Below, one piece after another: positions 5,571-40,430 of a stretch of DNA of 64,000 bases; the first letter of the stretch is position 1; each line of letters begins with the position of its first letter. Under the pieces are notes generated by a model. That model had not been told where the DNA came from and searched no databases. It saw only the letters and a list, made by a program, of their open reading frames with translations. Both the position numbers and the translations under genes were made by a program. This stretch comes from Candidatus Dojkabacteria bacterium (GTDB lineage Bacteria > Patescibacteriota > Dojkabacteria > SC72). The stretch lies in assembly GCA_040767225.1 (NCBI GenBank), contig JAXGOY010000002.1, forward strand, positions 17,410 to 81,409. The letters run 5' to 3'.

Positions 5571-6458
5571 TTGGAAAAGGTATTAAATCCTCAATTTTCT
5601 AAATATCAAGAAGAGTTTATTAACGAGCTTCGTAATAAAGGAAGGTCTGAGTCAACAATCATTGCTTATGCAAAAGATATTGAACAACTATTAAACTTTT
5701 TCTCATCACGAGGTATAAATAGGTTACAGGATACTACAATTGTAGATTTAGAAGCATATAAGAAACACTTACAGGACAATAACTATACTCCAAAGAGTAT
5801 TTCTAGAAAAATAAATAGTACAAGAACTTTTTATAGATTTTTACTTGAGCGTTCTGTAGTTACTGATAACATTGCAGAGAAACTTGCACATCCTAAGTTT
5901 GAAACAAAACCTCCTAGAGTACTCTCTGAGATGGAGTATAGGGCACTGCGAGATGTAAGCAGAGGAGATATTAGACTTTATTCAATTGTAGAAGTACTTC
6001 TTCAAACAGGTATAAGAATCGGAGAGCTAGCAACTCTAACAATTGATGATATAAGGAGATCAAAAGAGGGTGTAGATTTTCTTTACATAAAGGCATCAGG
6101 TAGTCATCCTGCAAGAAAGGTTCCATTAAATAAATCTGCTAAAAAGGCAATTGATGCATACTTAGAAATAAGGCCTGAAACAGAAGATGACACTTTGTAT
6201 GTAACAAAGAATGGAAGGCCCCTGCTTGTAAGGAATATAAGAACAGCTATAGATAAAGCATTTGAGAAAGCAAGTATTAAAAATGCTAAGGTAAACGATC
6301 TTAGAAATACATTTATAGCACATCATTTAGCAAAGGGTGTAAGTCTTGTTACTGTATCAAAATTAGTAGGTCATAAAAGAATATCTACCACAGAGAAGTA
6401 CTTAGGACTTGTTACAGACAACAAGCCAGAGGCAGAGAAATTACTCAAAGAGTTATAA
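5571..6458 (+). CDS. Tyrosine recombinase, XerC/XerD family. TTG start.
   Basis: N-terminal core-binding (SAM-like) domain. C-terminal catalytic region with R..HxxR-like residues and LVGHKRISTTEKY (nucleophile Tyr). 295 aa. Confidence 0.8.
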   Translation: MEKVLNPQFSKYQEEFINELRNKGRSESTIIAYAKDIEQLLNFFSSRGINRLQDTTIVDLEAYKKHLQDNNYTPKSISRKINSTRTFYRFLLERSVVTDNIAEKLAHPKFETKPPRVLSEMEYRALRDVSRGDIRLYSIVEVLLQTGIRIGELATLTIDDIRRSKEGVDFLYIKASGSHPARKVPLNKSAKKAIDAYLEIRPETEDDTLYVTKNGRPLLVRNIRTAIDKAFEKASIKNAKVNDLRNTFIAHHLAKGVSLVTVSKLVGHKRISTTEKYLGLVTDNKPEAEKLLKEL

Positions 6459-6852: not shown

Positions 6853-6928
6853 TGGTGGGAGCAGATGGAATCGAACCATCGACCACGGCTTTATAAGAAC
6901 CGCGCTCTACCGACTGAGCTATACTCCC
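6853..6928 (-). tRNA. tRNA-Ile with anticodon UAU (reads AUA)
   Basis: Reverse complement: GGGAGTA-TA-GCTC-AGTCGGTA-GAGC-G-CGGTT-CTTATAA-AGCCG-TGGTC-GATGG-TTCGATT-CCATC-TGCTCCC-A-CCA. Anticodon stem pairs cleanly and loop positions 34-36 are TAT. Confidence 0.8.
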
Positions 6929-6971: not shown

Positions 6972-9491
6972 CTAAAAATCAATAGGAGGAAAGCCTGATG
7001 GATTATTTTGTGTAGACTCATCCTCTACTCTATCTAAATCTGCTCTTCTATTTATCTCCATATTAACCAAGTTTATATCCCTCCCATACTTTAATCTAGA
7101 CATTTTAGTAATAATATCTTTAACCTCAGGATTAACTTTTAAATCAAAACCTGTTTCATTTACATATTTAGGACCATATCTTGCATCAAGAGAAAATGGA
7201 CTAGGATATGAATTATTTGTTAACATTTTTACATAGTAGTGTGCAAGCCCCTGATTTATTATATCCGTAGCCTTAACATATGTTTCAAATTGAGGTTCTA
7301 AAAACTGAGCATCCTCATTACTGCATCTTGTAATAAAGAGAGAACCTACATTCCCAAATACTGCATTTTTAATATCCTCTGGGAGCTGTCCAATATACTG
7401 ATGTGCAAGAGTAAGATTTAATCTATACTTCCTAGCCTCAGATAATATTGAAGCAAATTCCTGCGTTGCAAAGTTCTGAAACTCATCAGCATAAAAGAAG
7501 AAATCTTTTCTCTCACCCTCTGGAACATCTTCCCTGCTTAAAGCAGCTGCCAAAAGCTTTTGAACAAGCAAAAGACCTAGAAAAGACATATTCTCCTCAC
7601 CAAGAGCACCTTTAGAAAGGTTTACAATTAAAATCTTGCCTGTATCCATAACCTCTCTAAAATCAAAAGAAGATTTAGACTGCCCTATTATATTTCTAAT
7701 AGCTAAGTTAGTAGTAAATTTATCAAACTTACTAATAAAGTAACCAAGACTCTCTGATTTTGTCTTTGCATCAGTCTTAGCAACCTGGTCTGTCCAATAC
7801 CTTCTTACAAGCTCATCTTTAACAAGAGGAAGCCACTTTTCATATACCCATTTCTCATCTTGAAGCATTCTAACAACCTCTATCAGTGTAGAGCCCTGTA
7901 CACTCATTGCAGTAAGCATAGAGTTTCTCACTGCCTGTTGCATCATAGGGCCAACATACCCCTGATTATGAGGGTCAAAGAGACGTATAAGGAGATCTAT
8001 AAAACTGTTTACAATCTGGTGTTTATGCTGCTCATTATAAAATTCTAAGATGTTTAAACCAAAAGGTCTTTCAAAATCACCAGCATTAAAATATATAACA
8101 TCATCTGCTCTCTCTGGAGGAATTCTTTCAAGAATCATCTCTGCTGTTTCTCCATGGGGATCAATAAAACATACCCCATCGCCATTATATATATCCTGAA
8201 TAATCATTCTTACCATCAGCCATGACTTACCCGTACCTGTTTGCCCCAGTATATATGCATGTCTTCTTCTATCATCTCTTTGAAAGCATATAGCTTTAAC
8301 CTTACCTCTGAACACATTATTACCTACCCATATTGTATCCTTAGAATGAATATCTGAACTTATTTCATTGCTAGCAGGAAGCTCTCTCGCAAGAAGCCAA
8401 TTAATATTAGGAATAGTTACATCTTTGTTAGGAAAATGATATATAGCAGCAAGTTCTTCAACATTTAAAATACTACTAGATTCAAGTGGAGGTCTTCTAT
8501 ATATTACATCATACATAAACTCTTCCTCTTTCTTCTTCCCCTTTATCTCAACCTTCTTAAATTTATTAATCCCTGGATTGCTATACTGATCAAATGCACC
8601 AACGATATTATCTAAATGCATCTTGGCAAGTTCTTTGTCAGGAGCAGAAGTAACAATCCTAATATCTGTAATAAAACCGTTTTTACTAATCTTCTTTTGT
8701 ATTGCCTGTAACTTCTCTTCACTTACATTTATTTTCTTCTTTTCTGGATCAGAGTTATTATTTTGAATCTTTTTAACAAACCCCTCTCCATTCTTTTGCC
8801 ATTTATTATCTGACGGAGATATTACTATCTGAACTATAGCACCCTCTCCTTTAGACATCTTGCTTAAAGCACTAAGTATATTAGCCATAGGATCTCCAGT
8901 AAAATCAGAAGCAACTTTAATAGGACAGTAACTTTCCTCTGCCAACTGTAGTTTTGTATATGCAACTTCACTTCCTTTCTCAAATATGTTGTACTCTTCA
9001 ACCTTTCTAACATCAGCATCTTGATATGACCCAAGAATTTGTTTTTCTACATGCTCTGCAAACTTCTTAGGACAGTACACATAGAAATTTATAAGTCCAG
9101 GTGTCCCCACAACTTCAAAACTAATACTATTGTTTACTGTAAACTTTTCTGCAAGTCCTTTTCCTTTTCCCCCTATTCCAATAAGATTAGAAAACATTTT
9201 TTCAGCCACCCCTATCTCTGTTTCATTTCCCCTTGGTACTCTTACTTCAAAAAGAACCCAATTCTTTGCTTTTTCATTTCTATCTTTTCTTTTTAATCTA
9301 TCTTTAATTCTTAAGAATGAATATATAGCAATTGCTAATATAACAACAGCTGAAATTATCCAGCCCCATGGGATATCAACACTAGTTTTATTTACCTCCC
9401 CATATGTATCATTGGGATATTCAACTTGGTCTCCTACTGTAATATCTTCTTCGGGTATAGGCCCTACTTGAGTTAAAATATATTCTTTCAT
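6972..9491 (-). CDS. VirD4/TraG/TraD-like (TrwB-type) P-loop ATPase with long N-terminal membrane-anchored extension. HerA/DUF87-type alternative not excluded.
   Basis: 839 aa. One TM near residue 55. Walker A ILGQTGTGKSWLMV near residue 415. Walker B-like FFFYADEFQNF. Layout resembles T4SS coupling proteins annotated in CPR genomes as T4SS DNA-binding domain proteins. Confidence 0.55.
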   Translation of the reverse strand: MKEYILTQVGPIPEEDITVGDQVEYPNDTYGEVNKTSVDIPWGWIISAVVILAIAIYSFLRIKDRLKRKDRNEKAKNWVLFEVRVPRGNETEIGVAEKMFSNLIGIGGKGKGLAEKFTVNNSISFEVVGTPGLINFYVYCPKKFAEHVEKQILGSYQDADVRKVEEYNIFEKGSEVAYTKLQLAEESYCPIKVASDFTGDPMANILSALSKMSKGEGAIVQIVISPSDNKWQKNGEGFVKKIQNNNSDPEKKKINVSEEKLQAIQKKISKNGFITDIRIVTSAPDKELAKMHLDNIVGAFDQYSNPGINKFKKVEIKGKKKEEEFMYDVIYRRPPLESSSILNVEELAAIYHFPNKDVTIPNINWLLARELPASNEISSDIHSKDTIWVGNNVFRGKVKAICFQRDDRRRHAYILGQTGTGKSWLMVRMIIQDIYNGDGVCFIDPHGETAEMILERIPPERADDVIYFNAGDFERPFGLNILEFYNEQHKHQIVNSFIDLLIRLFDPHNQGYVGPMMQQAVRNSMLTAMSVQGSTLIEVVRMLQDEKWVYEKWLPLVKDELVRRYWTDQVAKTDAKTKSESLGYFISKFDKFTTNLAIRNIIGQSKSSFDFREVMDTGKILIVNLSKGALGEENMSFLGLLLVQKLLAAALSREDVPEGERKDFFFYADEFQNFATQEFASILSEARKYRLNLTLAHQYIGQLPEDIKNAVFGNVGSLFITRCSNEDAQFLEPQFETYVKATDIINQGLAHYYVKMLTNNSYPSPFSLDARYGPKYVNETGFDLKVNPEVKDIITKMSRLKYGRDINLVNMEINRRADLDRVEDESTQNNPSGFPPIDF

Positions 9492-9562: not shown

Positions 9563-9844
9563 TTAAAGAGGCAATTCTGCACCTGACTCTTTTTCTTGGA
9601 TTACCCTATTCCACTTACCCCCTGATGTCTCAATGCCCTTCGGGGGATCTTCCTGCTGGATAGAATCATTTCTCTTATTCCCTTCAGACATATTAAAATC
9701 TCTAGGTTCTATCTTAACAATTGGAGATGTAGACACCACTTCAGAATTAACATCTTCTGGTTTAGCTATCTCAGGAGTAAGCCCAGTAGGTTGCTCTCCT
9801 TTTTCTATTAAATCAATTTGTTCAATATTAGGTTTCTCTGTCAT
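9563..9844 (-). CDS. Hypothetical small acidic protein
   Basis: 93-aa ORF rich in Glu/Pro/Ser. No motif. Position between ATPase and smpB supports it weakly. Confidence 0.3.
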   Translation of the reverse strand: MTEKPNIEQIDLIEKGEQPTGLTPEIAKPEDVNSEVVSTSPIVKIEPRDFNMSEGNKRNDSIQQEDPPKGIETSGGKWNRVIQEKESGAELPL

Positions 9845-9855
9845 ATCCTATAATA

Positions 9856-10305
9856 TTACACCATATATTTTCTTTTTTCAAGTAGCAACTCCCTCTCCAT
9901 ATCCCTTTTCTTCTCTTCTTGCCTCTTCTCATGTACTTTCTTTCCTTTTGCTAACCCTACTTCAACCTTAAATATATTTCCTTTTAAATATATCCTTAAA
10001 GGAACTAAAGTAAGATTCCCCTGTTTCATTTTACTCTGTAAGTATATCAATTCCTTCTTTTTTATCAATAACTTCCTAGACCTTGTAGAATCATAATCTG
10101 AAGAACCATCATATTTGTATTGTGCTATATCAGCATTAATAAGCCAAAGCTGTCCATTTAAAATCTTTACATACGAATCCTTTAAATTACACCTTCCACC
10201 TCTTAAAGATTTAACCTCTGCACCTGTTAATACGACTCCTGCTTCAAATCTCTCTAATATCTGATAATTATGAAGTGCTTTTTTATTTACAATATTCATC
10301 TTCAA
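9856..10305 (-). CDS. smpB: SsrA-binding protein SmpB
   Basis: 149 aa. NKKALHNYQILERFEAGVVLTGAEVKSLR matches the conserved SmpB N-terminal core. Basic C-terminal tail. Confidence 0.9.
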   Translation of the reverse strand: MKMNIVNKKALHNYQILERFEAGVVLTGAEVKSLRGGRCNLKDSYVKILNGQLWLINADIAQYKYDGSSDYDSTRSRKLLIKKKELIYLQSKMKQGNLTLVPLRIYLKGNIFKVEVGLAKGKKVHEKRQEEKKRDMERELLLEKRKYMV

Positions 10306-10313: not shown

Positions 10314-12611
10314 TTACAGCTTCACTTTCCATATTGTTGTATCATCAAGAATGTACGCGTTGTTCTCATCGAAATCAGCAACAATATCTACTACTTTATT
10401 CCATGCCTTTTCATTATCATATACATACTGCCTGAGCAGCAGCATCTCATTAGGATGTCTTTTCTCCCCTGATTCCATAGGCTTTTCAAACATTAAAAGC
10501 CTCTTTTGACCACTATCAAAGAGAAACAAACTTTGATCAAGACTATCTCTTGTATGCCCACAAAGTGCATTTTTAATTGGAGAGTCCAACCCTGTTAACT
10601 TAACAGGTGATTCAACCATTCTTCCTCCACTATTTACATATCTATAAAATCCATTTTCCCCTTCTGCAGTAATATATATACTCATATCATCGGCAAATAC
10701 ATCATTTGCTTTTACATATTCTTCTTTCTCTAAATATGGAGAAACTAATGAATATCCCCCTTCATAGTTAATTGAACGAAGAAGAGCTTTCTGCCCCCTA
10801 TCTAAAATATATGCATTCTCATTTAGTGTTAACATTGCAAATTCAACTATATCCTCCCCTTTTATACTCTCAATACTTAATCCGCTTAGTTTAACAAACG
10901 GCTGGAATGACCCATCCTTATACTCCGACTTAAGAACTCCATTAGTTAAATCAAGAACAAATATGCTATCTGGTCTTGCATAAACCTTAAATGGTTTACT
11001 AACAACTTTATTATCATCGGGAATACTCTCTCTCTTATCATCATACAAAGATATTCTCAGTACAGACTTTGTTCCTAAATCCGCAATAATGAGAGATTCT
11101 ACAGCTCCACCTGGATTTCTAAATATTGCAATATCTTGAGGATTAGAATCAGGATTAGGAGTGGAAGTGTTATAGAATTTTTTAATAGTATCATCAGATT
11201 CAGATAACCTGACCCTTTTGTACAAAGAATCTTGAACACCCAAAACCTGTGCCTGTAACTCATTTAATTTTTTACTTTCATCCTCTTCCAACTCTACAGG
11301 AACATTCTTTAACTCTTCTGAAGCTTGAAATATAGAGACTTCTGCACTTTCCCTATTTGTACCAAGCTTTGACTGAGCATCATTTAAAAGTTTTTCAACT
11401 TTGGTAAATGCATCATTTGCTATTTTACTTCTCTCCCTTGCTTCTTTTTGATCTACAGTAAACTTTATACCACCAACTATCAAACAAACCCCAAGGAGTA
11501 TTAGAAGTAACTGCTTAACCCTTTTAGATCTTAGATTCTTTTCCTTGTATCCATCTATTTTAAATTCCTTAAACTCTGATGTTCTTTTTTTATGTAAACT
11601 ACTCTGAGAAACCTTGGCAGATATCTTTTTAAACCACCTTTCCTTTCCCAACTTGTTTGATATCTTACTCTTTGCACTTAAGCCAATATTCTTAACACCA
11701 TTAGCGACCTTCCTAGAAGTATCCTTTATAACCTGAAAAGATGCAGAAGATGCCTTAATTACTGCATTCTTTGCAGGTTCAAGTTTTTTTGATACTTTTG
11801 AAAAGACCTCTTTTAAGTCTTGCTCATGTACCGTAGGTTTAAATACCTTTTTGCTTGCCCTAGAAGTTGGTATATAGTCGGTGTCCAAGGGTTCTTGTTT
11901 TAAATTGGGTTGTAATCTTCTCTTTGGTTTAATAACTTTTTCTTTCTGTGCACTCTCTTCCTTCTTAGATTTTTCTTCAACTCTTTCTTTTGAAAAAATA
12001 ACAATACCCATATCCTCTCCTATTTCTCTTCCCAAATCTTCTAATACAGATTTAATCTCATTCCTACTTTTAGAAGAAATAAGCTTAAGGAGGTTGTCTT
12101 TCAAATACCCTTGAGATGATGCAAATACCAAGTCCTCTTTATCCATAGCAACAGCTGCTGTTTTTGCACCTTTGCTCTTAAGCATTTCTGATATATCTAC
12201 CAGTTTCCCCTGTTTGTATATATAGATATCACTATCTCCAAAGACACCAATATACATACCTTCATCAGTAGACACAAAAACAGTAAAATTAACATTAACT
12301 CCATGTTCCCCTATATTTTTATCATTCATAATCAGCTGCTTTACCCTATTTGCAGCTTCACTAAGTCCTGATTTAAGAGATTCGTTTATAGACACAGTTT
12401 TAGAATATTCAAAACCGTCTACTAGCCCATCCCATGCAAATTTTAATATCTGATCCCCTGGTATATCTATATCACTAGATGCAGAAAAAAAACCATATAC
12501 ATCAAAAACAGAACCATTCCCTCCACGAGGCAAGCTTTTATAATTAAACATTGATATGTATGACTTCTTTGATTCTGAATTTTTTATATATTTTGATGCA
12601 CTAATAGGCAT
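10314..12611 (-). CDS. Bitopic membrane protein: N-terminal PP2C/SpoIIE-like phosphatase-like domain, central TM, large C-terminal extracytoplasmic domain
   Basis: 765 aa. PP2C-like segment MYIGVFGDSDIYIYKQGKLVDIS. Basic/coiled region, then TM LLLILLGVCLIVGGIKF, then about 380 aa of repeat-rich beta-type sequence. Confidence 0.45.
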   Translation of the reverse strand: MPISASKYIKNSESKKSYISMFNYKSLPRGGNGSVFDVYGFFSASSDIDIPGDQILKFAWDGLVDGFEYSKTVSINESLKSGLSEAANRVKQLIMNDKNIGEHGVNVNFTVFVSTDEGMYIGVFGDSDIYIYKQGKLVDISEMLKSKGAKTAAVAMDKEDLVFASSQGYLKDNLLKLISSKSRNEIKSVLEDLGREIGEDMGIVIFSKERVEEKSKKEESAQKEKVIKPKRRLQPNLKQEPLDTDYIPTSRASKKVFKPTVHEQDLKEVFSKVSKKLEPAKNAVIKASSASFQVIKDTSRKVANGVKNIGLSAKSKISNKLGKERWFKKISAKVSQSSLHKKRTSEFKEFKIDGYKEKNLRSKRVKQLLLILLGVCLIVGGIKFTVDQKEARERSKIANDAFTKVEKLLNDAQSKLGTNRESAEVSIFQASEELKNVPVELEEDESKKLNELQAQVLGVQDSLYKRVRLSESDDTIKKFYNTSTPNPDSNPQDIAIFRNPGGAVESLIIADLGTKSVLRISLYDDKRESIPDDNKVVSKPFKVYARPDSIFVLDLTNGVLKSEYKDGSFQPFVKLSGLSIESIKGEDIVEFAMLTLNENAYILDRGQKALLRSINYEGGYSLVSPYLEKEEYVKANDVFADDMSIYITAEGENGFYRYVNSGGRMVESPVKLTGLDSPIKNALCGHTRDSLDQSLFLFDSGQKRLLMFEKPMESGEKRHPNEMLLLRQYVYDNEKAWNKVVDIVADFDENNAYILDDTTIWKVKL

Positions 12612-12614
12612 ATA

Positions 12615-12875
12615 TTATCCTAACACAATTATTATTATCCCCAATACCCCTATCACAAGAGAAACAACAAGATTGGCATATACAAGTACTTTTGCTTTAT
12701 CACTTTCTTCTAAATCAATAGTATCATGCAATATTCTAATTTTAAGAATAAGCATAAAAGAATAAAACATGCATACTGCAAGTATAATAATCAGTGGGAT
12801 TTTCAGAAGTATAACAAGACTTCCCATTTGTCCAAAATCAAATCCCAATACTTTGTCTAGAATAGTATTTCCCAT
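12615..12875 (-). CDS. Small two-TM membrane protein
   Basis: 86-aa hydrophobic ORF. Start overlaps the stop of the upstream gene, giving an operon-like arrangement. Confidence 0.3.
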   Translation of the reverse strand: MGNTILDKVLGFDFGQMGSLVILLKIPLIIILAVCMFYSFMLILKIRILHDTIDLEESDKAKVLVYANLVVSLVIGVLGIIIIVLG

Positions 12876-13513
12876 TATATTTTTCCTTTCTTTTTCATTT
12901 CAACTAAATCATTAATAATATCCTGCAGTTCTCTTGGTTTAGGTACCATTTTTAACCTAAAATCTATCTCATGTCCTGCAGTATCAACATCTAAATTTCC
13001 AATATCAAAAATATTCCCCCAAAAACCTGCAGTAGTATGTGTTACATCTTCAATATTTTTTAATTGAGCTTCAGAGTAAGAATGATAAAAAGCACTTTGA
13101 AGTTTAACAACAACAAATCTTCTGTCTGTGATAACAATAACTGAGTAAAACCATTTCAGAATAGCAGTAACAAGAACATTCAAGGCAATTAACACTCCTA
13201 GAACAAATAAACCTGTATAGAGTGCAGGAGATATTGAAGAACTAAATACAGAGGATATTATTGAAAGAAGTATAGGTAATAGTAGGAATAATAATACAAG
13301 AAGTAAATCAGGAAGATATGCAAGCCAATGCAGCCTTGTAAGAAGTATAACCTCTTTCTTTAGGTCCTTACCATAAAAATTTAATTTCTTAGGGAATACT
13401 TTAAACTCAGTACGAGTACCTTTTTTTTCTTCTTTAACTAATCTATCAATGAAAGAACTATCAACATTTTGGAACTTTTTAGGAATATTGCTCTTTCCCT
13501 TTTTCATATACAC
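12875..13513 (-). CDS. Membrane protein with bacterial PH-like (YdbS/YdbT-like) C-terminal region
   Basis: 212 aa. Two central TM helices. C-terminal segment resembles bPH_2-type domains. Weak. Confidence 0.35.
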   Translation of the reverse strand: MYMKKGKSNIPKKFQNVDSSFIDRLVKEEKKGTRTEFKVFPKKLNFYGKDLKKEVILLTRLHWLAYLPDLLLVLLFLLLPILLSIISSVFSSSISPALYTGLFVLGVLIALNVLVTAILKWFYSVIVITDRRFVVVKLQSAFYHSYSEAQLKNIEDVTHTTAGFWGNIFDIGNLDVDTAGHEIDFRLKMVPKPRELQDIINDLVEMKKKGKI

Positions 13514-13680: not shown

Positions 13681-15390
13681 TTACTGTATTTGTAGTACCA
13701 TTGCTGCTTGAAACTGCAACTGATGACATATAGAGGTAACAGGCTTAGCTGCTTTTGCCCTTGCTTCTGCATGGGTATACTGCCCAATGTTAGAATGACA
13801 GCCATCAACAACGGGATATATCCTTGAATCACCGTTCTTTCCTGCAGCTTTCCAAATCTGATATATATTTATGATATCCGCCATCTCTGCTTGTGTCATC
13901 CATGGTTTTCTACCACACTCTGTAGCACTATCAGAATACCAGTTACTTGTTTGACTCCCATACCATATCTTGTAAAACCAAGATACTCCTGAGATGCTAT
14001 CCCATGCCCTACTCATCCAATCCCCATTTCCAGTCTTATCTGTTGTATCCCAACCAGAAGTATTACTCCACCCTCCATGAACAGCAGCATACTGAGTTGA
14101 AAATGGTTTCCCTGAAGAATCAGTTAATACCATACCTCTTGTAGCTTCAACAGCCTGCTTCCATGCACCTGTCTTTTTCCCTTTTCCTACTACTTGACAA
14201 CTTTCAGATGTACAAATAGATTTTGCACCATTACTAGTATAGTTAACTGCATATGTTCTTGCAGCTATTGCTTGAGCTTTCAATACCTCCATAGGCCAGG
14301 ACTCTGGTACTTCATTTAATCTTAAAAGATAATCATCTTCAAAGTTCAATGTCCCATATGTAGTAGTTGAAATATTTGTCATAATGTTTTGCGTCTGACC
14401 ATTTATAACTACAGTACCTGTTCTTAAAACCTTTCCAGGATAATATGCCGAAAGTATCTGCTGATAGTTTTGCCCTGCATTAGCCCTAGCTTTAGCCCCC
14501 CATTGACTCATACCATTTCTATGTGTATATGCACCAATTGAAAACACACCAAAAGAACCTGCAGGAGCACTCTCCTTAAACCCTTGTAACGTTGTAATTC
14601 TCTCACCAGAAGCAGGAACAGCATTAGGATCTACATATGTCCCCCCTTGTCTTGTAACAAGCAATTGATACTGAAGGTCAGACAGCTCTGTTGTAAGACC
14701 ATTTATTGTCCTAGTTACCTTCCCTTTCTCTGCAATCTGTTTATTTAACTCTGCTTGTACCCTACTCTTTTCTTGTTTTATAAGGGCATATGAATCATCT
14801 AAATCCTTCTTTTGTTCATCTAACTCCTCTTTTTCTTTTTCCAAACTAGCCTTAATATCAACAAGACTTTGGAACTCCCCTGTAATCTTCTCTATTTCTT
14901 CTTTTAATGTAGTTATAGTACTCTTTTTCACAAACAAACTTCTTAAAACCTGATCTAAACTTGAAAAAGAAAACAGAAATTGTCCCTCGTTATACCTACT
15001 TCTCATATATAAATCACTTGAAACTATATCTAAACTCTCTTTCTTCTTACTTAATAATCTTTGTTTTTCATCAATACTTTTTAATTTCTCCTCTATCTCT
15101 CTATCCTTTTTAGATATTTCTGCCTGTAATTTTGATATCTCTGCATCAAGCAGGTTAATCTGTTCAGACAATGTATAATTACTGCTACTTATCTCTTTTA
15201 TTCTCTTCTCTATCTCAGATAAATATGTTTTCTGTTTATTTAATTCCTCTTCTTTTTGGTTAATAACCTGTTCAAGTTCTTGTGCTGTTTGAGAATATAT
15301 TGGAGTACTAACAAGAAAGAATAAAATAGATGTAAGGAATACAGCAATCAATAAAATGATATATTTTGGAGCAGTTTTGTTCTGAGACAT
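13681..15390 (-). CDS. Coiled-coil protein with C-terminal SpoIID/LytB-like (lytic transglycosylase-type) domain
   Basis: 569 aa. N-terminal signal/TM, about 230 aa of heptad-rich coiled coil. C-terminal region containing EVLKAQAIAARTYAV and Trp/Gly-rich segments typical of the SpoIID/LytB family. Confidence 0.55.
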   Translation of the reverse strand: MSQNKTAPKYIILLIAVFLTSILFFLVSTPIYSQTAQELEQVINQKEEELNKQKTYLSEIEKRIKEISSSNYTLSEQINLLDAEISKLQAEISKKDREIEEKLKSIDEKQRLLSKKKESLDIVSSDLYMRSRYNEGQFLFSFSSLDQVLRSLFVKKSTITTLKEEIEKITGEFQSLVDIKASLEKEKEELDEQKKDLDDSYALIKQEKSRVQAELNKQIAEKGKVTRTINGLTTELSDLQYQLLVTRQGGTYVDPNAVPASGERITTLQGFKESAPAGSFGVFSIGAYTHRNGMSQWGAKARANAGQNYQQILSAYYPGKVLRTGTVVINGQTQNIMTNISTTTYGTLNFEDDYLLRLNEVPESWPMEVLKAQAIAARTYAVNYTSNGAKSICTSESCQVVGKGKKTGAWKQAVEATRGMVLTDSSGKPFSTQYAAVHGGWSNTSGWDTTDKTGNGDWMSRAWDSISGVSWFYKIWYGSQTSNWYSDSATECGRKPWMTQAEMADIINIYQIWKAAGKNGDSRIYPVVDGCHSNIGQYTHAEARAKAAKPVTSICHQLQFQAAMVLQIQ

Positions 15391-15419: not shown

Positions 15420-15761
15420 TTAAAGTGTAACCTCTCCTTTAGTAATGGTATCTACTACAATTGAAAGAAGCATCTTAATTAAATACAAAAATGCTAAACC
15501 AGCAATAGACCATGTAAGTGTACCTTGTGCTCTCTTCTTTTTGTCAGGTTCTCCACCAGAAGTCATCCAAAGGTATCCCCCATATATTGTCATACCAACA
15601 GCAGCAAGTACACCAATAGGAAAGATAAAAGAAATAATTTTGCTCAACGAATCAAGTAGTACCTCTAATCTAGGGGGTTCTCCTGGAGCAACTAGCCCAT
15701 CTTCCTGAGCAAAAACTGGGCTACTAAACAAAACACTTAGCATTTTCACAACAAGGTTCAT
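15420..15761 (-). CDS. VirB2/TrbC-like (T4SS-pilin-like) small two-TM protein, paralog 1
   Basis: Signal peptide. TM1 PIGVLAAVGMTIYGGYLWMTSGGEPDKKKRAQGTLT, then TM2. Shares the GGY.YMT(A/S)GG(D/E) loop and two-TM layout with the five following genes. Confidence 0.5.
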   Translation of the reverse strand: MNLVVKMLSVLFSSPVFAQEDGLVAPGEPPRLEVLLDSLSKIISFIFPIGVLAAVGMTIYGGYLWMTSGGEPDKKKRAQGTLTWSIAGLAFLYLIKMLLSIVVDTITKGEVTL

Positions 15762-15800
15762 ACTGCTGTTTACTTAATATATGAATAAATTCTTAAAGAG

Positions 15801-16187
15801 TTAAGCTAAGAAAGTCATTAGCAAACTTTCTGCTGGTTGAACCCCTAAGAAATTCTTTAATACAAAGTTTACAAGTATAACAGCAATGAAACAAATTGCT
15901 AAACCAATCATAGCATTTGTTAGTGTTTTTGTAGCTTTCCCAACCTTCTGCTCATCACCACCTGCTGTCATATATGAATATCCTCCAACAATCAACATTA
16001 CAACACATATAACTGCAGCTGCACCAATCATCCAATTTAGAACATCAACAATTAAATCCTCACCAGTTTTGCTTGAACCTTGATTAAGCTTTGGAGAGAT
16101 GTCGTCCCAAAAAGATGCAAATGTTGCAATAGGAAAAGATAACAAAGTAACTCCTGATGCTAATACTTTTGACAACTTATTTTTCAT
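15801..16187 (-). CDS. VirB2/TrbC-like pilin paralog 2
   Basis: Conserved core LNWMIGAAAVICVVMLIVGGYSYMTAGGDEQKVGKATKTLTNAMIGLAICFIAVILVNFVLKNF. Confidence 0.5.
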   Translation of the reverse strand: MKNKLSKVLASGVTLLSFPIATFASFWDDISPKLNQGSSKTGEDLIVDVLNWMIGAAAVICVVMLIVGGYSYMTAGGDEQKVGKATKTLTNAMIGLAICFIAVILVNFVLKNFLGVQPAESLLMTFLA

Positions 16188-16255
16188 ATATTAAGTATTA
16201 ATAAATAAATTAATTAAATTATTATAATATATCTTCTTAAAAAGAACAATTATCT

Positions 16256-16627
16256 TTATTTTGTATTAGTAACTAAAAAATTCTTTAATACAAAGTTTAC
16301 CAACATTACAGCTACAAAACAAATAACTAAACCAATAATAGCATTAGTCAATGTCTTTGTTGCTTTCTGTGTTTTCTCTTCATTACCACCTGAAGTCATG
16401 TATGTAAATCCTGCAACAATTAACATAACTACACATACAACAGCAGAACCACCAATTAACCAGTTTAATACCTTAACAATTAAATCCTCAAGTGTTCCAG
16501 GAGTAGAAAGCAAACTATCAAAGATTTCATCTACCCACCCCATAGGACTTTCAGCTAAAGCTAACATAGGCATAAAAAATAATGGAATTTCTGCTAAAGC
16601 AATTTTAACTGTTTTTACAATCTTCAT
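16256..16627 (-). CDS. VirB2/TrbC-like pilin paralog 3
   Basis: Core LNWLIGGSAVVCVVMLIVAGFTYMTSGGNEEKTQKATKTLTNAIIGLVICFVAVMLVNFVLKNF. Confidence 0.5.
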   Translation of the reverse strand: MKIVKTVKIALAEIPLFFMPMLALAESPMGWVDEIFDSLLSTPGTLEDLIVKVLNWLIGGSAVVCVVMLIVAGFTYMTSGGNEEKTQKATKTLTNAIIGLVICFVAVMLVNFVLKNFLVTNTK

Positions 16628-16633
16628 CGCAAA

Positions 16634-17008
16634 TTACACTATTAATTTAGATTCTTCTTTAAATAAATACATTATTACAGGAGTTGGTCCCCCTCCACCA
16701 CCAGGAGGTGGAGAAGACTCTGGTTTCAAAAAATTATCAAGAACAAAATTAACTAACACTACTGCAATAAAACAAATAACTAAACCAATAATTGCATTCG
16801 TCAATGTCTTTGATGCATCTTTTACTTTACTTTCATCCCCACCTGCAGTCATATATGAATACCCTCCAACAATAATCATTACAACGCATACTACTCCTGC
16901 AGCACCAATAATCCAATTTAAAATAGTAACAATAAAATCACTTAAATCCCCCCCTGTCCCTTCAAACCCATCTAAAATTTCCTTAACACTTAACTGTGCG
17001 AAAGCCAA
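16634..17008 (-). CDS. VirB2/TrbC-like pilin paralog 4. N-terminus uncertain: an in-frame signal-peptide-like sequence lies upstream with no ATG. Has a unique Pro/Gly-rich C-terminal tail.
   Basis: Core ILNWIIGAAGVVCVVMIIVGGYSYMTAGGDESKVKDASKTLTNAIIGLVICFIAVVLVNFVLDNF. Upstream in frame (to about 17060) reads ...KITTIGVLLFSSVSLAFAQLSV, which looks like a signal peptide. Confidence 0.45.
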   Translation of the reverse strand: MAFAQLSVKEILDGFEGTGGDLSDFIVTILNWIIGAAGVVCVVMIIVGGYSYMTAGGDESKVKDASKTLTNAIIGLVICFIAVVLVNFVLDNFLKPESSPPPGGGGGPTPVIMYLFKEESKLIV

Positions 17009-17124
17009 CGAAACAGAACTAAAAAGTAAAACTCCAATCGTAGTTATTTTTGATAAACTTTTTTCACTTTTAAATATTTTTAATTTATAAAAGAAATGTA
17101 TCTAATACAAATTTTATCAACATC

Positions 17125-17431
17125 CTAGCCAAAAATACAATACATAGTCCAATAATTAGCTGTTAAAATGTTGCCTACCTTTTTCACATTATCAGGATCA
17201 CCACCAGCAGTCATATATGTAATCCCTGCATAGATTATTAAGTCAACAGCAACAACCGCAGATGCTCCAACAAGGAAATTTAGCAAGTCGATAAATAAAA
17301 TCAACAATACCCTCAACAGAAGAAAACCTCTCATTAAAAGAAGGAAAATTTATCTCCCATCCCCCTAATACAATAGGAAGGAATATCCATTTTCCTTTAT
17401 CTTCTTTGTTTTTTAAATCTTTCTTTCTCAT
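17125..17431 (-). pseudogene. Frameshifted VirB2/TrbC-like pilin paralog 5
   Basis: Two overlapping minus-strand ORFs in different frames, 17243-17431 and 17125-17334. The second carries the family core ASAVVAVDLIIYAGITYMTAGGDPDNVKKVGNILTA, so a single gene is split by a frameshift. Confidence 0.5.
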
Positions 17432-17442
17432 ATTATTATTTA

Positions 17443-17772
17443 TTATTCAGGTAAAAATAGATTCCCTATTAATAACAAAAGAGCCGCAGAAACTAAAATA
17501 AATACTAAACCAGTAATAGCATTCCCTATCTGCTCTCTTGCATCCTTAAGTTTATCAGGATTCCCCTGACTTGTTATCATTTTGTATGCAGCAAAAGCCA
17601 TAAGAAGTGCAGCTGCAAGAACACTAAGAGGTAGTGCGATATCGATTATATCCTGCATTATAGATTCTACATTTGTCTCCCCCGGATTACTCTTTTCAAT
17701 TCCACTAATAAGTTCTCCCACTTTCTCAGTAATCTGACTAGCATATATTTTAAAATTCTGTCTCATAAACAT
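17443..17772 (-). CDS. VirB2/TrbC-like pilin paralog 6 (most divergent)
   Basis: Core LPLSVLAAALLMAFAAYKMITSQGNPDKLKDAREQIGNAITGLVFILVSAALLLLIGNLF. Same two-TM plus loop architecture. Confidence 0.45.
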   Translation of the reverse strand: MFMRQNFKIYASQITEKVGELISGIEKSNPGETNVESIMQDIIDIALPLSVLAAALLMAFAAYKMITSQGNPDKLKDAREQIGNAITGLVFILVSAALLLLIGNLFLPE

Positions 17773-17808: not shown

Positions 17809-20800
17809 TTATAATATAGCATCCTTACATATAGATCTAAAATCACAATATTTACACTTAAAACTGCTTGGAGTTGCAGTAAATTCTCTATCTTTAATCC
17901 TCCTTACTATCTCATACACACTCTCTTTTGCTTTTTCTCTTCTCTCTTCAGAAATATCCACTTCTATCTCTACACCCTCTTCTATAAATATATACTTTGC
18001 TCTTTTAACTTTTACACCAAGACTTTGCTCTGCGAAAATACAGTACAAAGGAAGCTGTAAATCATTCTTTATATCTGCCTCGTCTTTTAAATGACCTGTT
18101 TTATAATCAATTATTTCTACCTCTGGAATATCCCCTGCTTTTACCAAATCTATTCTATCAATCTTTCCAACAAAACTTCCCTCTGGAAGATGCACTGTAA
18201 ATGGCTGCTCCAACCTGTATGGGTTCTGCTCTGTACTAAAGAACTTTTTGTAATACTCTTTCATTGCTTTAATACCACTCTTTTTTCTATCCTCTTCATG
18301 CTTTTTATTTTCATATCCCTTACTTATCCAATTTTTATTAAAAATCTCTATTAACTCCCCCTCTGTTGGAGGGTTTGTAATTCCAAGTCCCTCTTTGTAT
18401 CTTTGAAGAAGGGTATAGAAATCTTTAAGGGTTTTATGAATGGTAGATCCAAAAGACAAAGATGCATGCGGCAGTGTTGGTATCTGCAAAACATATGCAT
18501 ACTCATACTTCTTAGGACAGTCAATATATGTATCTATTTGAGAATAACTAACCTTATCTCCCACTTCCATTTTTACATTTTCAGGAACAATGTTTTTAGT
18601 ATCTTCTTTATAAACATTTAAACCCTCATCTGATTTCGTAACCATTGGATTATTAAAATCTTCTGTAACATCTCTATCTAATATCTCATTTAGAAATATA
18701 CTCGGTTTCTTTTTTCTTTTAGCATTTCCATAAAAATTAGCAGCAGTAAGATATAGCTTTTCCTTAGCACGAGTTGCACCTACATAGAATAATCTTCTCT
18801 CTTCTGCTAAATGCTCTTCTCTTTCATCTAAGCCAGATAATGTCTCTTTTATAAGTGCCTGAGGAATTGGAATTGTGTCTCTCCTATTTTGGGAAGGGAA
18901 TCTGTCAGCTACCAGATTAACTAAAAATACAACAGGAAACTCCAAACCTTTTGCACTATGAACAGTTAAAACATTTACAGCATCATACTCACTTAAATCC
19001 ATCTGATCTACCAGAGGAGAATCGCCAACTTCTATACTATAGTTTAAGAAATCAACATACTCATATACATTTGAATCAGGATTAGCACGCTCATATTCTT
19101 TAATAGTATTAAAAAATCTCGCAAGATTATTTGCTTTAAACTCTGCTAACGGTCCTTTCTCTTCAAGAAGACTATTAATATACCCACTTTCATTTATAAA
19201 ATAAAGAAGAATTTCACCCACAGACTTTTTCTCTTTAATCATTTGAGCACATTTGTCATATATTGTTAAAAACCTTTTAATATTTTCTCTTGAATTTTCT
19301 GAAAAGATCTTTTTACCTAACTCGTTAACTATAAACTCCATACTGTTTCCTATACTTACCCCAAACATACCTTCAAGCTCTTCCAAAACTGACACATGGT
19401 CCTCCCTTGCAATTCTGTTAATCTCTAGAAATTCTCTTGTAGACAAACCCCACTCTTGCATAGAAAGAACCATATACATAGACACTTCATCTGTATAATC
19501 TGTTAGGGCTTTTAAAAAAGATATAAGAACCTTAATTTCCTCTCTAAAATACAAACCTCTTGAACCACCCAGATTATAAGGAACACCAAAATACCTTAAG
19601 TTTTGTACAATACTATCTGCATGAGCATTTGCTCTAACCAATATTGCAACATCAGAAAATTTGTATTTTCTATCAGGAACAAGTTCAAGAAATGCAGACT
19701 GACCACTTTCATTAAACTTTTGAGTACCTCTGACAGATGTCTCATCTGAATTCCCAGTCAATGATAATATCTCTTTTGCTATCCACTCTCCCTCTGCATC
19801 TTCACTCTCAGCAGTAATTAAATTAACAACATCATCATCAAAAGGAAATGACTCCATTGCAATTAACCTTTTATCAACCTTTTCAGTTACCTCTAACCTG
19901 TATGGATTATTATTCTTAATCAAGCCATATGCACTATCAAGTATCTTCTGATGAGATCTGTAATTCTCTGTTAAAACAATCTTTTTTGCCTTAGGATAAT
20001 ACTGCTTAAATTGCAGTATGTTTGAAATAGCTGCACCTCTAAATTTATAAATAGCTTGATCATCATCACCCACAACAGTTAAATTAGGATTTACCTTTCC
20101 TACTTTATCCATATCTTTTTTAGGATCTAACCCACTTAGTATATTTACTAGTACACTCTGGGAATAGTTAGTATCTTGAAACTCATCAACAAGAATATAT
20201 TTAAACTTCTCTTGGTATCTCTTTAATACATTAGGTTTTTCTCTAAAGAGCTTAATAGTAAGAAGTATTAAATCACCAAAATCAAGCATAGAGTTTTTCA
20301 TCTTAAGCTTTGTATACTCATCATATACTGTCGCAAGTTCTAAAGTGTCTTCATATTCTTCTTTTTCAACAGAATCCTTCTTTGAGAGAGCTCTTGCATA
20401 TTCCAAGTACTCTGCAGGAGAAACATCTTCATCTTGAAGTCTTGAAAAATGATCTAGTAGGTCACTTACAAACCTAGTAGGATTCCCATACGGTCTAAAT
20501 TTCTTTAGTGAGAGATCAAAGAGATGCTTTCTTAAAAATACATATGACTGGGCAGCAGACATTAGGATATAATCAGAATCTAAACCAATGTTATACCCCT
20601 CCTGCTTCAGTATCCTGTCACAGAAAGAATGAAATGTAGATATCCATACATCACCATACCCAATAGGCATACTCTCATCTACTCTTTGCAACATTTCATC
20701 AGCAGCCTTTTCAGTAAATGTAAGAGCAAGAATCTCATCAGGCTTAGCCCATTTACTATTAATAATATGAACTATTCTTTGTGTAATAACTGCAGTTTTC

Positions 20801-20886
20801 CCTGTACCTGCACCTGCAATAATTAAAAGTGCTCCTTTTTTGTACTCAACTGCCTGTTTCTGTTTTTCATTCAAGTTTAAATTCAT
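17809..20886 (-). CDS. UvrD/PcrA-family superfamily-1 helicase fused to a C-terminal PD-(D/E)XK nuclease domain with Cys cluster (AddB/Cas4-like)
   Basis: 1025 aa. Walker A AGAGTGKTAV near the N-terminus, UvrD-like helicase motifs. C-terminal ...CPKKYEY...DRIDL...CKYCDFRSICK nuclease/Fe-S-like signature. Confidence 0.8.
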   Translation of the reverse strand: MNLNLNEKQKQAVEYKKGALLIIAGAGTGKTAVITQRIVHIINSKWAKPDEILALTFTEKAADEMLQRVDESMPIGYGDVWISTFHSFCDRILKQEGYNIGLDSDYILMSAAQSYVFLRKHLFDLSLKKFRPYGNPTRFVSDLLDHFSRLQDEDVSPAEYLEYARALSKKDSVEKEEYEDTLELATVYDEYTKLKMKNSMLDFGDLILLTIKLFREKPNVLKRYQEKFKYILVDEFQDTNYSQSVLVNILSGLDPKKDMDKVGKVNPNLTVVGDDDQAIYKFRGAAISNILQFKQYYPKAKKIVLTENYRSHQKILDSAYGLIKNNNPYRLEVTEKVDKRLIAMESFPFDDDVVNLITAESEDAEGEWIAKEILSLTGNSDETSVRGTQKFNESGQSAFLELVPDRKYKFSDVAILVRANAHADSIVQNLRYFGVPYNLGGSRGLYFREEIKVLISFLKALTDYTDEVSMYMVLSMQEWGLSTREFLEINRIAREDHVSVLEELEGMFGVSIGNSMEFIVNELGKKIFSENSRENIKRFLTIYDKCAQMIKEKKSVGEILLYFINESGYINSLLEEKGPLAEFKANNLARFFNTIKEYERANPDSNVYEYVDFLNYSIEVGDSPLVDQMDLSEYDAVNVLTVHSAKGLEFPVVFLVNLVADRFPSQNRRDTIPIPQALIKETLSGLDEREEHLAEERRLFYVGATRAKEKLYLTAANFYGNAKRKKKPSIFLNEILDRDVTEDFNNPMVTKSDEGLNVYKEDTKNIVPENVKMEVGDKVSYSQIDTYIDCPKKYEYAYVLQIPTLPHASLSFGSTIHKTLKDFYTLLQRYKEGLGITNPPTEGELIEIFNKNWISKGYENKKHEEDRKKSGIKAMKEYYKKFFSTEQNPYRLEQPFTVHLPEGSFVGKIDRIDLVKAGDIPEVEIIDYKTGHLKDEADIKNDLQLPLYCIFAEQSLGVKVKRAKYIFIEEGVEIEVDISEERREKAKESVYEIVRRIKDREFTATPSSFKCKYCDFRSICKDAIL

Positions 20887-26553: not shown

Positions 26554-26962
26554 TGGTGGAGACGGTGGGACTTGAACCCACGTCCAAAAGCTAAGTACAG
26601 TCTCATTTACAAATATATTTAGATTTATATAGTTAGATTAAACTAAAAAATCTAACAAAAAGTCTAATCTACTCGGTAATTAATTTCACTAAGTATCCTC
26701 TACCGACAAAGAATACAAAGCATACCCTAGTAACGACTGTCTATATCTCTTAACTAGGGATAAGGGAAATAGACATTGACTAATATTTAGTCAAACTTAT
26801 GCAAAGTTAAAAGCATAATTAGGCATGCTAAAAGCAGCCTTCAGCTTACTTGCAAAAGCGTTAATTTTGTTTTCTACACTTATCTGTGTTTAAGTTTTAC
26901 GAACTTAAAAACGATTTGTGATAACTGCACTTACAGACTTTTGTCGAAAGCCTGACGTCCCC
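26554..26962 (-). ncRNA. ssrA: tmRNA (SsrA)
   Basis: Minus-strand 5' end GGGGACGTCAGGCTTTCGAC. 3' end is a tRNA-like T-arm plus acceptor GGACGTGGGTTCAAGTCCCACCGTCTCCACCA, pairing with the 5' GGGGACG (one G-U). A short internal reading window ends ...SMPNYAFNFA-stop, reminiscent of canonical ...NYALAA tags. Lies in a 510-bp ORF-free gap. Confidence 0.75.
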
Positions 26963-38461: not shown

Positions 38462-38908
38462 CTACTCTATATCAGAGCCAAGCTCTCTCATTTTTTCTTT
38501 AATTTTTTCATAAACCTCATCATCTCCAACTCTATCGTCACAATATTCATTAAAATAATCAGATTCACCGTCTACCCCATATTTTTTCTCTAACTCTTCC
38601 ATCTTTTTGCTATATTCTAATATCATAGGATCTGCAAGATCTGATTCTGCTATACGAAAAGCGTAAGCTAGTATTTCAATACAGGCCTCATCACTTATAT
38701 TCCCTGTATTGGGAGTTTTCGTTTCATTAGAAGTAGTATTGGGTGATTCGTCAGAATCTTCTTCGGTCGAAGTTATTGGGAGATTATTATTTTTTTCTGG
38801 ATCATAATCGATGTTTTTTTTAAATAAAAAGTCACTTTGATAAATAAATAATAAAATACATATAACTATTAATACGCCTATCAAAAAAATAATATTTTTT
38901 TTACTCAT
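38462..38908 (-). CDS. Hypothetical secreted/membrane-anchored acidic protein
   Basis: 148 aa. N-terminal TM, Ser/Thr/Asn-rich linker, Cys-containing acidic C-terminus. Intact ORF. Confidence 0.35.
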   Translation of the reverse strand: MSKKNIIFLIGVLIVICILLFIYQSDFLFKKNIDYDPEKNNNLPITSTEEDSDESPNTTSNETKTPNTGNISDEACIEILAYAFRIAESDLADPMILEYSKKMEELEKKYGVDGESDYFNEYCDDRVGDDEVYEKIKEKMRELGSDIE

Positions 38909-38984
38909 ATCGTAATGTATTTAATTAGTAAATTACTACCCTAAATACTAGTATAATATAAAAAATATTTTTATCAAATCATAC

Positions 38985-39460
38985 TTAAAAAATGTTAATT
39001 ATTACAATAACAAAGAGATAATCTCTAAGTATCATGTCTTCAATTTCTTCTCTATTCATATATCCTTCTTTTTCTAAACAACTATTTAAAGGAACAATTA
39101 AATGATCGATGAAAGTCATCCCCGTCATGAGTAACCTTTGTAATAGTATTAAATTTGTTAATGATTGACAAAATAGCTTACGCTTGGTGCGCAATGCAAA
39201 GAAGTTAAAAGTCCACCAGAAATTAGAAAATTTTTTACTTGAATTGCTTGAAGTATTTTACCACCTATGAGAAGATCTTCCTTTTTAAAAGCATCGGGAG
39301 AATTTGACTCTATCGTCGTTACTGCCACCTGAAGCTTGAATTTTTGTTATTGTTCCATCTGGATTTTTAATTTAATTGTCCTATCTTTCTTTTTCTCTTT
39401 CTTGATTTTTGGTTTTATGGGAAGACTAAAATAAACTGCGGGATATTGCTTAAATTTGCC
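38985..39460 (-). pseudogene. Fragmented ORF remnants (unknown function)
   Basis: Minus-strand translation gives ...IQVKNFLISGGLLTSLHCAPSVSYFVNH(stop) and, in another frame, ...SLTNLILLQRLLMTGMTFIDHLIVPLNSCLEKEGYMNREEIEDMILRDYL. The pieces look like one gene split by indels. Confidence 0.3.
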
Positions 39461-39464
39461 TATT

Positions 39465-40091: not shown

Positions 40092-40098
40092 ATTTTTA

Positions 40099-40316: not shown

Positions 40317-40430
40317 CTAAGTATGATAACAATAATATGGATGCTTGTCTAACTCCTCATAAAATATAATTCTTGGATATAAAGTATTTTTATGATTTCT
40401 ATTCAAAGGTTTAGTATAGGAAGAAGAGTA

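Follow-up and report, generated by a model that had tools for sequence, protein, structure and literature searches.

Canonical coupling proteins (T4CPs) of type IV secretion systems (T4SSs) contain two transmembrane (TM) helices, with the motor following almost directly. In Patescibacteria (candidate phyla radiation, CPR), a census of 3,035 genomes by hidden Markov models (HMMs) recorded 5,713 VirD4-type T4CP homologues in 2,918 genomes, 148 of them near virB4, together with VirB4 in 2,417 genomes and 109 relaxases in all (Quinonero-Coronel et al., 2025, PMC12102498). According to the same study, patescibacterial T4SS genes often lie near dnaA, VirB2-like pilins occur in arrays of 2–11 genes, the VirB4 proteins of Patescibacteria form a clade that branches within the monoderm class MPF_FATA, and an exaptation of t4cp was suggested by the authors (PMC12102498). 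In S. epibionticum, the T4SS is essential, and its cluster contains no recognisable coupling protein (Wang et al., 2023, PMC10633639). Here, we analyse a gene for a T4CP-like ATPase of 839 amino acids (aa) in a 64-kb stretch of chromosomal DNA, referred to as the window, from Candidatus Dojkabacteria (candidate division WS6; CPR/Patescibacteria).

The window gene is an ordinary member of the published, near-universal patescibacterial family, and nothing about it is categorically new. An orphan T4CP-like gene with neither VirB4 nor relaxase nearby is the rule in Patescibacteria and not a peculiarity of the window. The original prediction for this locus had proposed a T4SS coupling-protein-type ATPase with an N-terminal region lacking an obvious counterpart, which might form a distinct minimal machine with a nearby pilin block. 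The ATPase type stood, while the separate machine and the N-terminal region without counterpart did not; indeed, an orphan gene with its machine encoded elsewhere had been named as a finding that would count against the proposal, and the situation comes close to this. What goes beyond the literature is the VirB4-type N-terminal domain, apparently inherited from coupling proteins of monoderm and archaeal plasmids, as well as two paralogue clades and a near-constant small open reading frame (ORF) upstream. The published HMM census treats neither the N-terminal domain nor the clades nor the upstream ORF, and its t4cp1 hits are likened to the present family by description (PMC12102498).

ATPase family and protein architecture

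The gene is a genuine ORF with an ATG start (6972..9491, minus strand), as had been predicted; the plus-strand reading of the same interval is full of stops. Among Pfam models, DUF87 (the HerA central domain) is the only one that the window protein matches above its cut-off. AAA_10 scores 19.1 against a cut-off of 27.5, CagE_TrbE_VirB (PF03135) does not match, and the best NCBIfam matches, the VirD4-like model CD1115 (39.7 vs. 250) and TraD, lie far below their cut-offs. The picture becomes clearer at the level of the family, for which 55 diverse members were scanned (matches at E ≤ 1e-3; alignment representatives 30–48% identical): the TraD/T4CP models SXT_TraD and TOL_TraD match all 55, TrwB_AAD_bind 51, the CD1115 VirD4-like model 50, TraG-D_C 45 and T4SS-DNA_transf 28, compared to 14 for VirB4_CagE, 11 for HerA and four for AAA_10. 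The first sequence matches in the PDB are TrwB and DotL. Many orthologues of 70–85% identity have precomputed matches to PF02534 and PF10412, and identical or near-identical proteins carry PF26449 and PF01935, in part with PF02534/PF10412. A phmmer search with a Bacillus VirB4 query recovered none of the ATPase family. By these sequence models, the ATPase half is of the coupling-protein type (T4CP/VirD4/TraD), and not of the VirB4, HerA or FtsK type. The discrimination between TrwB/T4SS-DNA_transf, HerA/DUF87 and FtsK models that had been proposed as a check thus falls on the coupling-protein side.

That the protein might instead be a HerA/FtsK-type ATPase acting in DNA repair, defence or chromosome segregation, with no link to secretion, is suggested by the sole DUF87 match, by weak PADLOC matches to mad8/HerA and by the frequent neighbours xer, divIC and dnaX. 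We consider this very unlikely: HerA models match only 11 of the 55 members and are limited to the ATPase core, and the HerA/FtsK assignment is not favoured because T4CP models outscore HerA models across the family. Moreover, the N-terminal domain is VirB4-like and not a HerA HAS-barrel, which is absent from the window protein, as is the FtsK/SpoIIIE layout of four TM helices, alpha/beta motor and gamma domain. Besides the ATPase, the genome has a complete, separate FtsK (4TM, alpha, motor, gamma), located together with rpoB and rpoC within ~10 kb past the right end of the window. In the recurrent flanking-gene clusters, we noticed neither NurA nor Sir2 nor any other HerA partner, although these were not searched for specifically. 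A role as a defence system was rejected as well, since the PADLOC matches are to generic HerA/mad8 only.

An AlphaFold2 model of the whole 839-aa protein (predicted local distance difference test, pLDDT, 89.1; predicted template modelling score, pTM, 0.83) was used together with the sequence to delimit the following features:

9375..9491, minus strand: acidic disordered N-terminal tail, aa 1–39 (pLDDT <50)
9267..9368, minus strand: single TM helix running into a basic cytoplasmic helix, aa 42–75 (hydropathy peak aa 36–64; model helix 42–75)
8352..9260, minus strand: DUF8128 domain, aa 78–380, with a VirB4-N-domain-like alpha/beta fold
7032..8336, minus strand: T4CP-type P-loop ATPase domain (FtsK-HerA superfamily), aa 386–820
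8223..8246, minus strand: Walker A GQTGTGKS, aa 416–423, preceded by an RRRH motif common to TrwB and DotL
7641..8033, minus strand: helical insertion in the ATPase domain, aa 487–617 (AlphaFold2 model)
7482..7502, minus strand: Walker B FFFYADE, aa 664–670

Both Walker motifs and the single TM helix had been part of the original prediction, and all of them are present. The hydrophobic segment (~aa 42–62) is preceded by an acidic composition and followed by a K/R-rich stretch; according to the positive-inside rule, the N-terminal tail would lie outside the membrane and everything after the helix in the cytoplasm. The N-terminal hydrophobic helix is found in nearly all of the 55 family members. 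One T4SS_pilin Pfam match among these members was not reproduced with a pilin HMM and is treated as TM-helix noise. In an alignment of 61 sequences, H411, G416, G421 and K422 are invariant, and so are D669 and E670 of Walker B. Conserved residues of the DUF8128 domain comprise E126 and the motif LNxEELAxxxHFP (E346, H352, P354). In the model, the alpha/beta fold itself extends over aa 78–350.

The insertion is modelled as seven helices (487–505, 515–528, 536–544, 546–556, 560–570, 575–594 and 596–602). The TrwB_AAD_bind alignment covers aa 400–725 and spans this insertion, which, in the model, sits at the position of the all-alpha domain (AAD) of coupling proteins and may be equivalent to it. 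However, matches of a VirB4 C-terminal domain and of DndH/DptH to the whole ATPase domain are no worse than that of TrwB, so the insertion need not be diagnostic of T4CPs.

The N-terminal domain and its relatives on plasmids

The N-terminal region had been described as lacking an obvious counterpart in canonical VirD4. It corresponds to Pfam PF26449 (DUF8128): the 100%-identical P0001 and P0002, as well as each of the 120 homologues listed, have a precomputed match to this model, N-terminal to DUF87 in each case. The top fold match of the domain is VirB4, with no HerA entry among the listed fold matches, and a Foldseek search with the whole model returns TrwK/VirB4 of R388 first, over ~900 alignment columns. 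At the sequence level, an hhalign comparison with the N-region of Bacillus VirB4 gives a probability of 0.6%, and a profile of the domain finds nothing among PDB sequences except chance matches to designed proteins. The VirB4 relationship of the N-terminal domain is thus visible only at the fold level: the layout of the protein is VirB4-like, its sequence signature T4CP-like. The name “DUF8128” was not found in the literature searched.

Relatives outside the CPR were sought by tblastn against plasmids. Full-length-type homologues (query aa ~120–837) are found on Bacillus and haloarchaeal plasmids, while plasmids of Streptomyces, Sulfolobus and Thermococcus match the ATPase half only. Plasmid NRS6107_2 of B. 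subtilis (NZ_OX419568.1) encodes WP_213380696.1, a 913-aa “DUF87 domain-containing protein” collinear with query aa 123–767 (BLASTP 26% identity, E 2e-46). Its gene lies directly upstream of one annotated as “replication-relaxation family protein” (for which no Pfam match was obtained), followed by TcpC, TcpE and an AAA_10 VirB4. This is the position that the coupling protein classically takes in conjugation operons of monoderms. An assignment of this homologue to the pLS20 family was rejected, as the T4CP of pLS20 itself is of the canonical two-TM type (PMC8557374). On the Haladaptatus plasmid NZ_CP085307.1, a VirB4-like 1,072-aa ATPase is followed by a 350-aa hypothetical protein and a “T4SS DNA-binding domain-containing protein” (T4CP). 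By hhalign, the 350-aa protein is clearly homologous to DUF8128 (99.5%, E 2.4e-22), and the haloarchaeal pair jointly covers query aa 119–837. Linkage to a relaxase and/or VirB4, not found for the window gene in the window or ~10 kb beyond, is seen for both the Bacillus and the haloarchaeal homologues. Because of these two arrangements, the N-terminal domain can be regarded as an old, separable companion of the T4CP lineage in monoderm and archaeal conjugation, which fits the published nesting of patescibacterial VirB4 in MPF_FATA (PMC12102498).

Distribution, paralogue clades and gene neighbourhood

The family is large: more than 2,456 homologues were found in one search, and an exhaustive search returned 20,622 cluster representatives (50% identity) at E ≤ 1e-3, of which 4,817 at E ≤ 1e-30. 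Most members measure 800–860 aa, with variants that carry TPR-rich N-termini or long C-terminal extensions. Pfam scans of the long variants gave TPR repeats or unannotated C-terminal extensions and no functional clue. In three of them (P0207, P0220 and P0234; 1,369–1,511 aa), ~1,000 aa of TPR repeats stand in place of DUF8128, and the ATPase is ~50% identical to that of the window protein. An orthologue with 73% identity lies on a 697-kb contig of GCA_050950225.1.

Gene order was compared in 84 loci, namely the best 80 of >600 species-representative genome matches, three relatives and the window, which cover Dojkabacteria, Microgenomatia, WWE3, Berkelbacteria, ABY1, Paceibacteria and others. 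A small ORF lies directly upstream of the ATPase gene on the same strand in 78 of the 84 loci, across CPR classes (median 154 aa), and is called as a gene in the three relatives (L001–L003). These ORFs are variable in sequence, yet have lineage-specific conserved C-terminal motifs. They are not claimed to form one family: lenient BLAST lumps 52 of 67 together, probably due to low-complexity composition. The window's own version, an acidic ORF of 93 aa, gives no Pfam or PADLOC match. From gene order, the small upstream protein is a candidate partner of the ATPase.

Two paralogues of the DUF8128-ATPase architecture, termed clades A and B, coexist in some loci, where they may be adjacent:

L048, 1128–6163: paralogue pair
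L049, 9932–18560: paralogue pair
L073, 9741–17193: paralogue pair

Clade A accounts for 82 of the 87 ATPases in the loci and for 104 of 150 representatives, clade B for the remaining 46, and the window protein is closer to clade A (546 vs. 459 bits). The small upstream ORF goes with clade-A genes, while in L049 and L073 a protein of 346 aa with a sigma-region-4-like helix-turn-helix is encoded ahead of the clade-B gene.

This distinction bears on S. epibionticum, which has two such genes. SEML1_0142 (1,019 aa, P-loop domain 381–800) is essential at all time points, and SEML1_0141 (139 aa), which precedes it, has the score “GD” at the first time point but counts as essential at both later time points (PMC10633639). 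SEML1_0293 (921 aa, TrwB_AAD_bind 402–719) is non-essential and preceded by the 349-aa “RpoS” SEML1_0294 (PMC10633639). By gene order, SEML1_0142 looks like a clade-A and SEML1_0293 like a clade-B member, with the caveat that SEML1_0293 is also similar to the window protein in its Pfam coordinates. Should this assignment hold, the dispensability of the T4CP in S. epibionticum would apply to clade B only. Given one essential and one dispensable gene, the statement “T4CP dispensable” needs to be re-examined clade by clade.

In the window, the ATPase gene closes a co-directional minus-strand block that runs from pilins via SpoIID, membrane proteins and smpB, as described in the original prediction. 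The genes of the block and those flanking its ATPase end are as follows:

15420–17772, minus strand: VirB2-like T4SS_pilin array of six ORFs (PF18895 matches and an HMM built from the window pilins)
13681–15390, minus strand: SpoIID-domain protein, part of the co-directional block
12875–13513, minus strand: bPH_2 membrane protein, part of the co-directional block
12615–12875, minus strand: DUF5657, part of the co-directional block
10314–12611, minus strand: 765-aa protein, between DUF5657 and smpB
9856–10305, minus strand: smpB, within the pilin-to-ATPase gene string
9563–9844, minus strand: 93-aa acidic low-complexity ORF, candidate partner, directly upstream of the ATPase on the same strand
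6853–6928, minus strand: tRNA-Ile, anticodon TAT (UAU), directly downstream of the ATPase gene
5571–6458: xerC-like tyrosine recombinase, flanking the ATPase gene together with tRNA-Ile

No VirB4, VirB6, VirB11 or relaxase is found among the larger window ORFs by Pfam and ORF lists, which bears out that part of the prediction, nor in the ~10 kb past the right end; VirB3, VirB6, VirB8 and TrsD Pfam neighbours are likewise absent from the window ORFs. The label “PP2C-like” for the 765-aa protein is not borne out. The protein has no PP2C match in Pfam, no PADLOC match and no PDB sequence match, its sole Pfam signal being a sub-threshold Glyco_hydro_49N, and its homologues occur only in Dojkabacteria-like loci (7/84). 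A promoter and terminator scan of 6.4–18 kb did not rise above shuffled expectation and gives no operon boundaries.

In Dojkabacteria, a longer run of genes has been kept, with proteins ~70% identical: helicase, pilins, SpoIID, bPH_2, DUF5657, the ~765-aa protein, smpB, small ORF, ATPase, xer, divIC, efp and ftsH. This conserved order could point to a VirB4-like ATPase of pilus biogenesis, i.e., an assembly motor that extracts the adjacent VirB2-like pilins, and the succession of TM helix, N-domain and ATPase can be read as resembling VirB3-VirB4 fusions. Such a role is improbable. The VirB4 layout (VirB4-type N-domain, then ATPase) is present, but VirB4 sequence membership (PF03135, PF12846, TIGR00929) is absent, and the sequence models described above give T4CP and not VirB4. 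Furthermore, the Bacillus and haloarchaeal plasmids encode a separate VirB4 in addition to the family member, and Table S1 of the published census includes two Dojkabacteria genomes marked VirB4-positive (PMC12102498). The pilin neighbourhood is lineage-specific: pilins lie within 10 kb of the ATPase in only six of the 84 loci, so there is no conserved minimal machine of ATPase and pilins. The co-occurrence that had been proposed as a check is confined to Dojkabacteria-like loci, and elsewhere the neighbours are housekeeping genes.

The flanking tRNA-Ile and xerC-like recombinase might also mark the gene as a relic of an integrated conjugative element, i.e., a decaying module. We give this very little credence. 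Loci of different CPR classes share the succession of ATPase, xer and divIC (23 of the 84 loci have xer, 16 have divIC), the GC content of the gene (0.34) matches its surroundings, the catalytic residues are intact and invariant, and nearly all CPR genomes contain the family.

Several further observations concern the window itself. Its chromosomal genes include dnaA, dnaN, rpmH, rnpA, yidC, tmRNA, ftsH, sigma-70, dnaG, ksgA and aminoacyl-tRNA synthetases, with eight tRNA/tmRNA genes and a GC content of ~32%. Near-identical homologues of the window ATPase bear source names of Candidatus Dojkabacteria. The pilin array includes a short ORF (~17128–17349) under the 80-aa ORF cut-off, and the copy at 16634–17008 has a Pro/Gly-rich C-terminal tail (SSPPPGGGGGPTPV). 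Immediately upstream of the pilins (17809–20886, minus strand), a 1,025-aa UvrD/PcrA-type helicase is fused to a PD-(D/E)XK/Cas4-like nuclease domain; this helicase-pilin order is also kept in the Dojkabacteria relatives L001 and L003. In contrast to the UAU anticodon of the window's tRNA-Ile, AUA is read in most bacteria by a lysidine-modified CAU tRNA. The tmRNA gene (26554–26962, minus strand) has the tag peptide VENKINAFASKLKAAFSMPNYAFNFA, with its partner gene smpB 16 kb away in the window. The genome is otherwise tightly packed, but the ~2.3 kb at 38900–41200 contain no ORF ≥100 aa on either strand, and a permissive Rfam search of this interval gave nothing except the edge of the adjacent tRNA-Ser. 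A cell-envelope cluster at 53634–58529 (minus strand) comprises a 1,000-aa DUF4012 protein, a PEGA-domain protein and a family-4 glycosyltransferase, and adjoins ksgA.

Proposed function and comparison with known systems

The T4SS-like machine of Patescibacteria is essential in the only species in which this has been tested, and has neither a relaxase nor an assigned coupling protein. A T4CP-derived ATPase that nearly every CPR genome has kept represents the family most likely to reveal the cargo of this machine and the direction of transport. Judged by sequence, the family goes back to coupling proteins of monoderm conjugation systems (T4CP, VirD4/TraD/TrwB lineage). Whether the ATPase still serves this machine as a substrate-handling motor on its cytoplasmic side, with the VirB4-like domain for docking, is in our view about an even bet. 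In this proposal, the layout of short outside tail, one TM helix, cytoplasmic DUF8128 module and T4CP-type P-loop motor with helical insert would give rise to a membrane-anchored ring at the cytoplasmic face, which hydrolyses ATP. A macromolecular substrate might be handed to, or pulled from, a machine of the VirB4/VirB6/VirB2 type encoded elsewhere on the chromosome, and the VirB4-like N-domain may serve as a docking module to the membrane complex or to the small partner encoded upstream. Given how few relaxases the phylum has, plasmid DNA piloted by a relaxase is an improbable substrate, and transport may run in either direction. The co-directional arrangement with a VirB2-like pilin array in the Dojkabacteria lineage, conserved at ~70% protein identity, speaks for the proposal, as do the T4CP-type sequence signal of the family, the gene orders on the Bacillus and haloarchaeal plasmids, and the published MPF_FATA placement of VirB4 and frequency of VirD4-type homologues.

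A number of findings weigh against a motor that serves a T4SS. The window protein itself misses the TrwB_AAD_bind cut-off by 0.4 bit (20.1 vs. 20.5) and stays below that of TraG-D_C (17.4 vs. 22). No virB4 linkage is found in the 64-kb window or ~10 kb beyond, no VirB4 was found in the 84 loci with the Bacillus VirB4 query, and no T4SS component appears among their annotated recurrent flanking-gene clusters; published virB4 proximity (148 of 5,713) likewise makes the orphan gene the rule. Pilins are near the gene in only the six Dojkabacteria-like loci, and the recurrent neighbours are housekeeping genes (xer 23/84, divIC 16/84, dnaX 16/84, smpB 12/84), and in Microgenomatia they include nrdR, ribonucleotide reductase and cobalamin adenosyltransferase. 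Genomes with T4CP homologues outnumber those with VirB4 (2,918 vs. 2,417, although part of the T4CP count consists of t4cp2-profile hits of unconfirmed identity), and hence some members must work without VirB4. Finally, SEML1_0293 is dispensable while the T4SS of S. epibionticum is essential.

Some of these observations would be expected of an exapted motor that is independent of the T4SS, or of a Ced-like import motor for the uptake of host nucleic acid or another polymer, similar to archaeal CedD. CedD combines a TM helix, a VirB4-like N-domain and an ATPase, and is required for DNA import only (PMC11868833). Its NCBIfam model matches 49 of the 55 family members, albeit weakly (best E 2e-9), and the family is near-universal, resides in housekeeping neighbourhoods, is unlinked from virB4 and is found in more genomes than VirB4 (PMC12102498). 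Moreover, SEML1_0142 is essential, as is SEML1_0141 at the later time points, with clade-A orthology suggested by gene order but unproven, and ComEC-dependent competence is dispensable in S. epibionticum. However, the CedD score of the window protein is 21 bits against a cut-off of 600 (NF053655), weaker than its TraD/VirD4 scores. Ced also requires the VirB6-like CedA and the VirB2-like CedA1, so a Ced-like mode would not be truly independent of a T4SS-like channel; the import direction is putative, and the orthology of SEML1_0142 is drawn from gene order only. We regard an exapted or Ced-like motor as possible, if doubtful. Its specific form, in which the clade-A ATPase and its small partner act as an essential CedD/CedB-like motor that imports host nucleic acid via a VirB2-pilus/VirB6 channel, appears unlikely. 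If it were true, the VirB4-like N-domain would pair with, or replace, the short-N-domain patescibacterial VirB4/TrsD, and the imported nucleic acid would feed cells that are unable to make nucleotides.

Compared with characterised systems, the window protein has a mosaic of features. The P-loop domain with Walker A and B (FtsK-HerA superfamily), the PF26449 plus DUF87 layout, the HerA central/ATPase domain and an N-terminal TM anchor are present, the last with one helix where canonical T4CPs usually have two. To TrwB (R388), VirD4/Cag-beta and DotL, sequence identity amounts to only 13–16%, and, unlike in these canonical T4CPs, a VirB4-like domain of ~300 aa follows the single TM helix. From VirB4 proteins (TrwK of R388; the T. 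pseudethanolicus VirB4 C-terminal domain), the window protein differs by the lack of sequence-level membership. CedD of the Sulfolobales Ced system is similar in its succession of TM helix, VirB4-N-domain-like module and ATPase and in being chromosomal, and works with VirB2-like pili (PMC11868833). However, CedD is archaeal and classed with HerA/CedB, and its N-domain corresponds to no more than a part of that of VirB4, while the family described here goes with T4CPs and scores far below the CedD cut-off.

WP_213380696.1 of the B. subtilis plasmid shares the collinear N-domain and ATPase as well as the Pfam pattern of DUF87 and TrwB_AAD_bind, but is plasmid-borne, lacks the N-terminal TM helix and has a long acidic C-terminal tail. 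The haloarchaeal counterpart is split into two genes, archaeal and plasmid-borne, and adjoins the VirB4-like 1,072-aa ATPase. In S. epibionticum ML1, SEML1_0142 and SEML1_0293 have, like the window protein, an N-region of ~380–400 aa and, behind it, a P-loop domain of the T4CP type. As in clade A, a small gene precedes SEML1_0142, and, as in clade B of L049 and L073, a 349-aa sigma-like gene precedes SEML1_0293; the orthology is drawn from gene order and domain coordinates only. Among the chromosomal VirD4-type homologues of Patescibacteria (PMC12102498), the same kind of gene is found in the same organisms, nearly always far from virB4 and without a relaxase, and the window gene fits this description.

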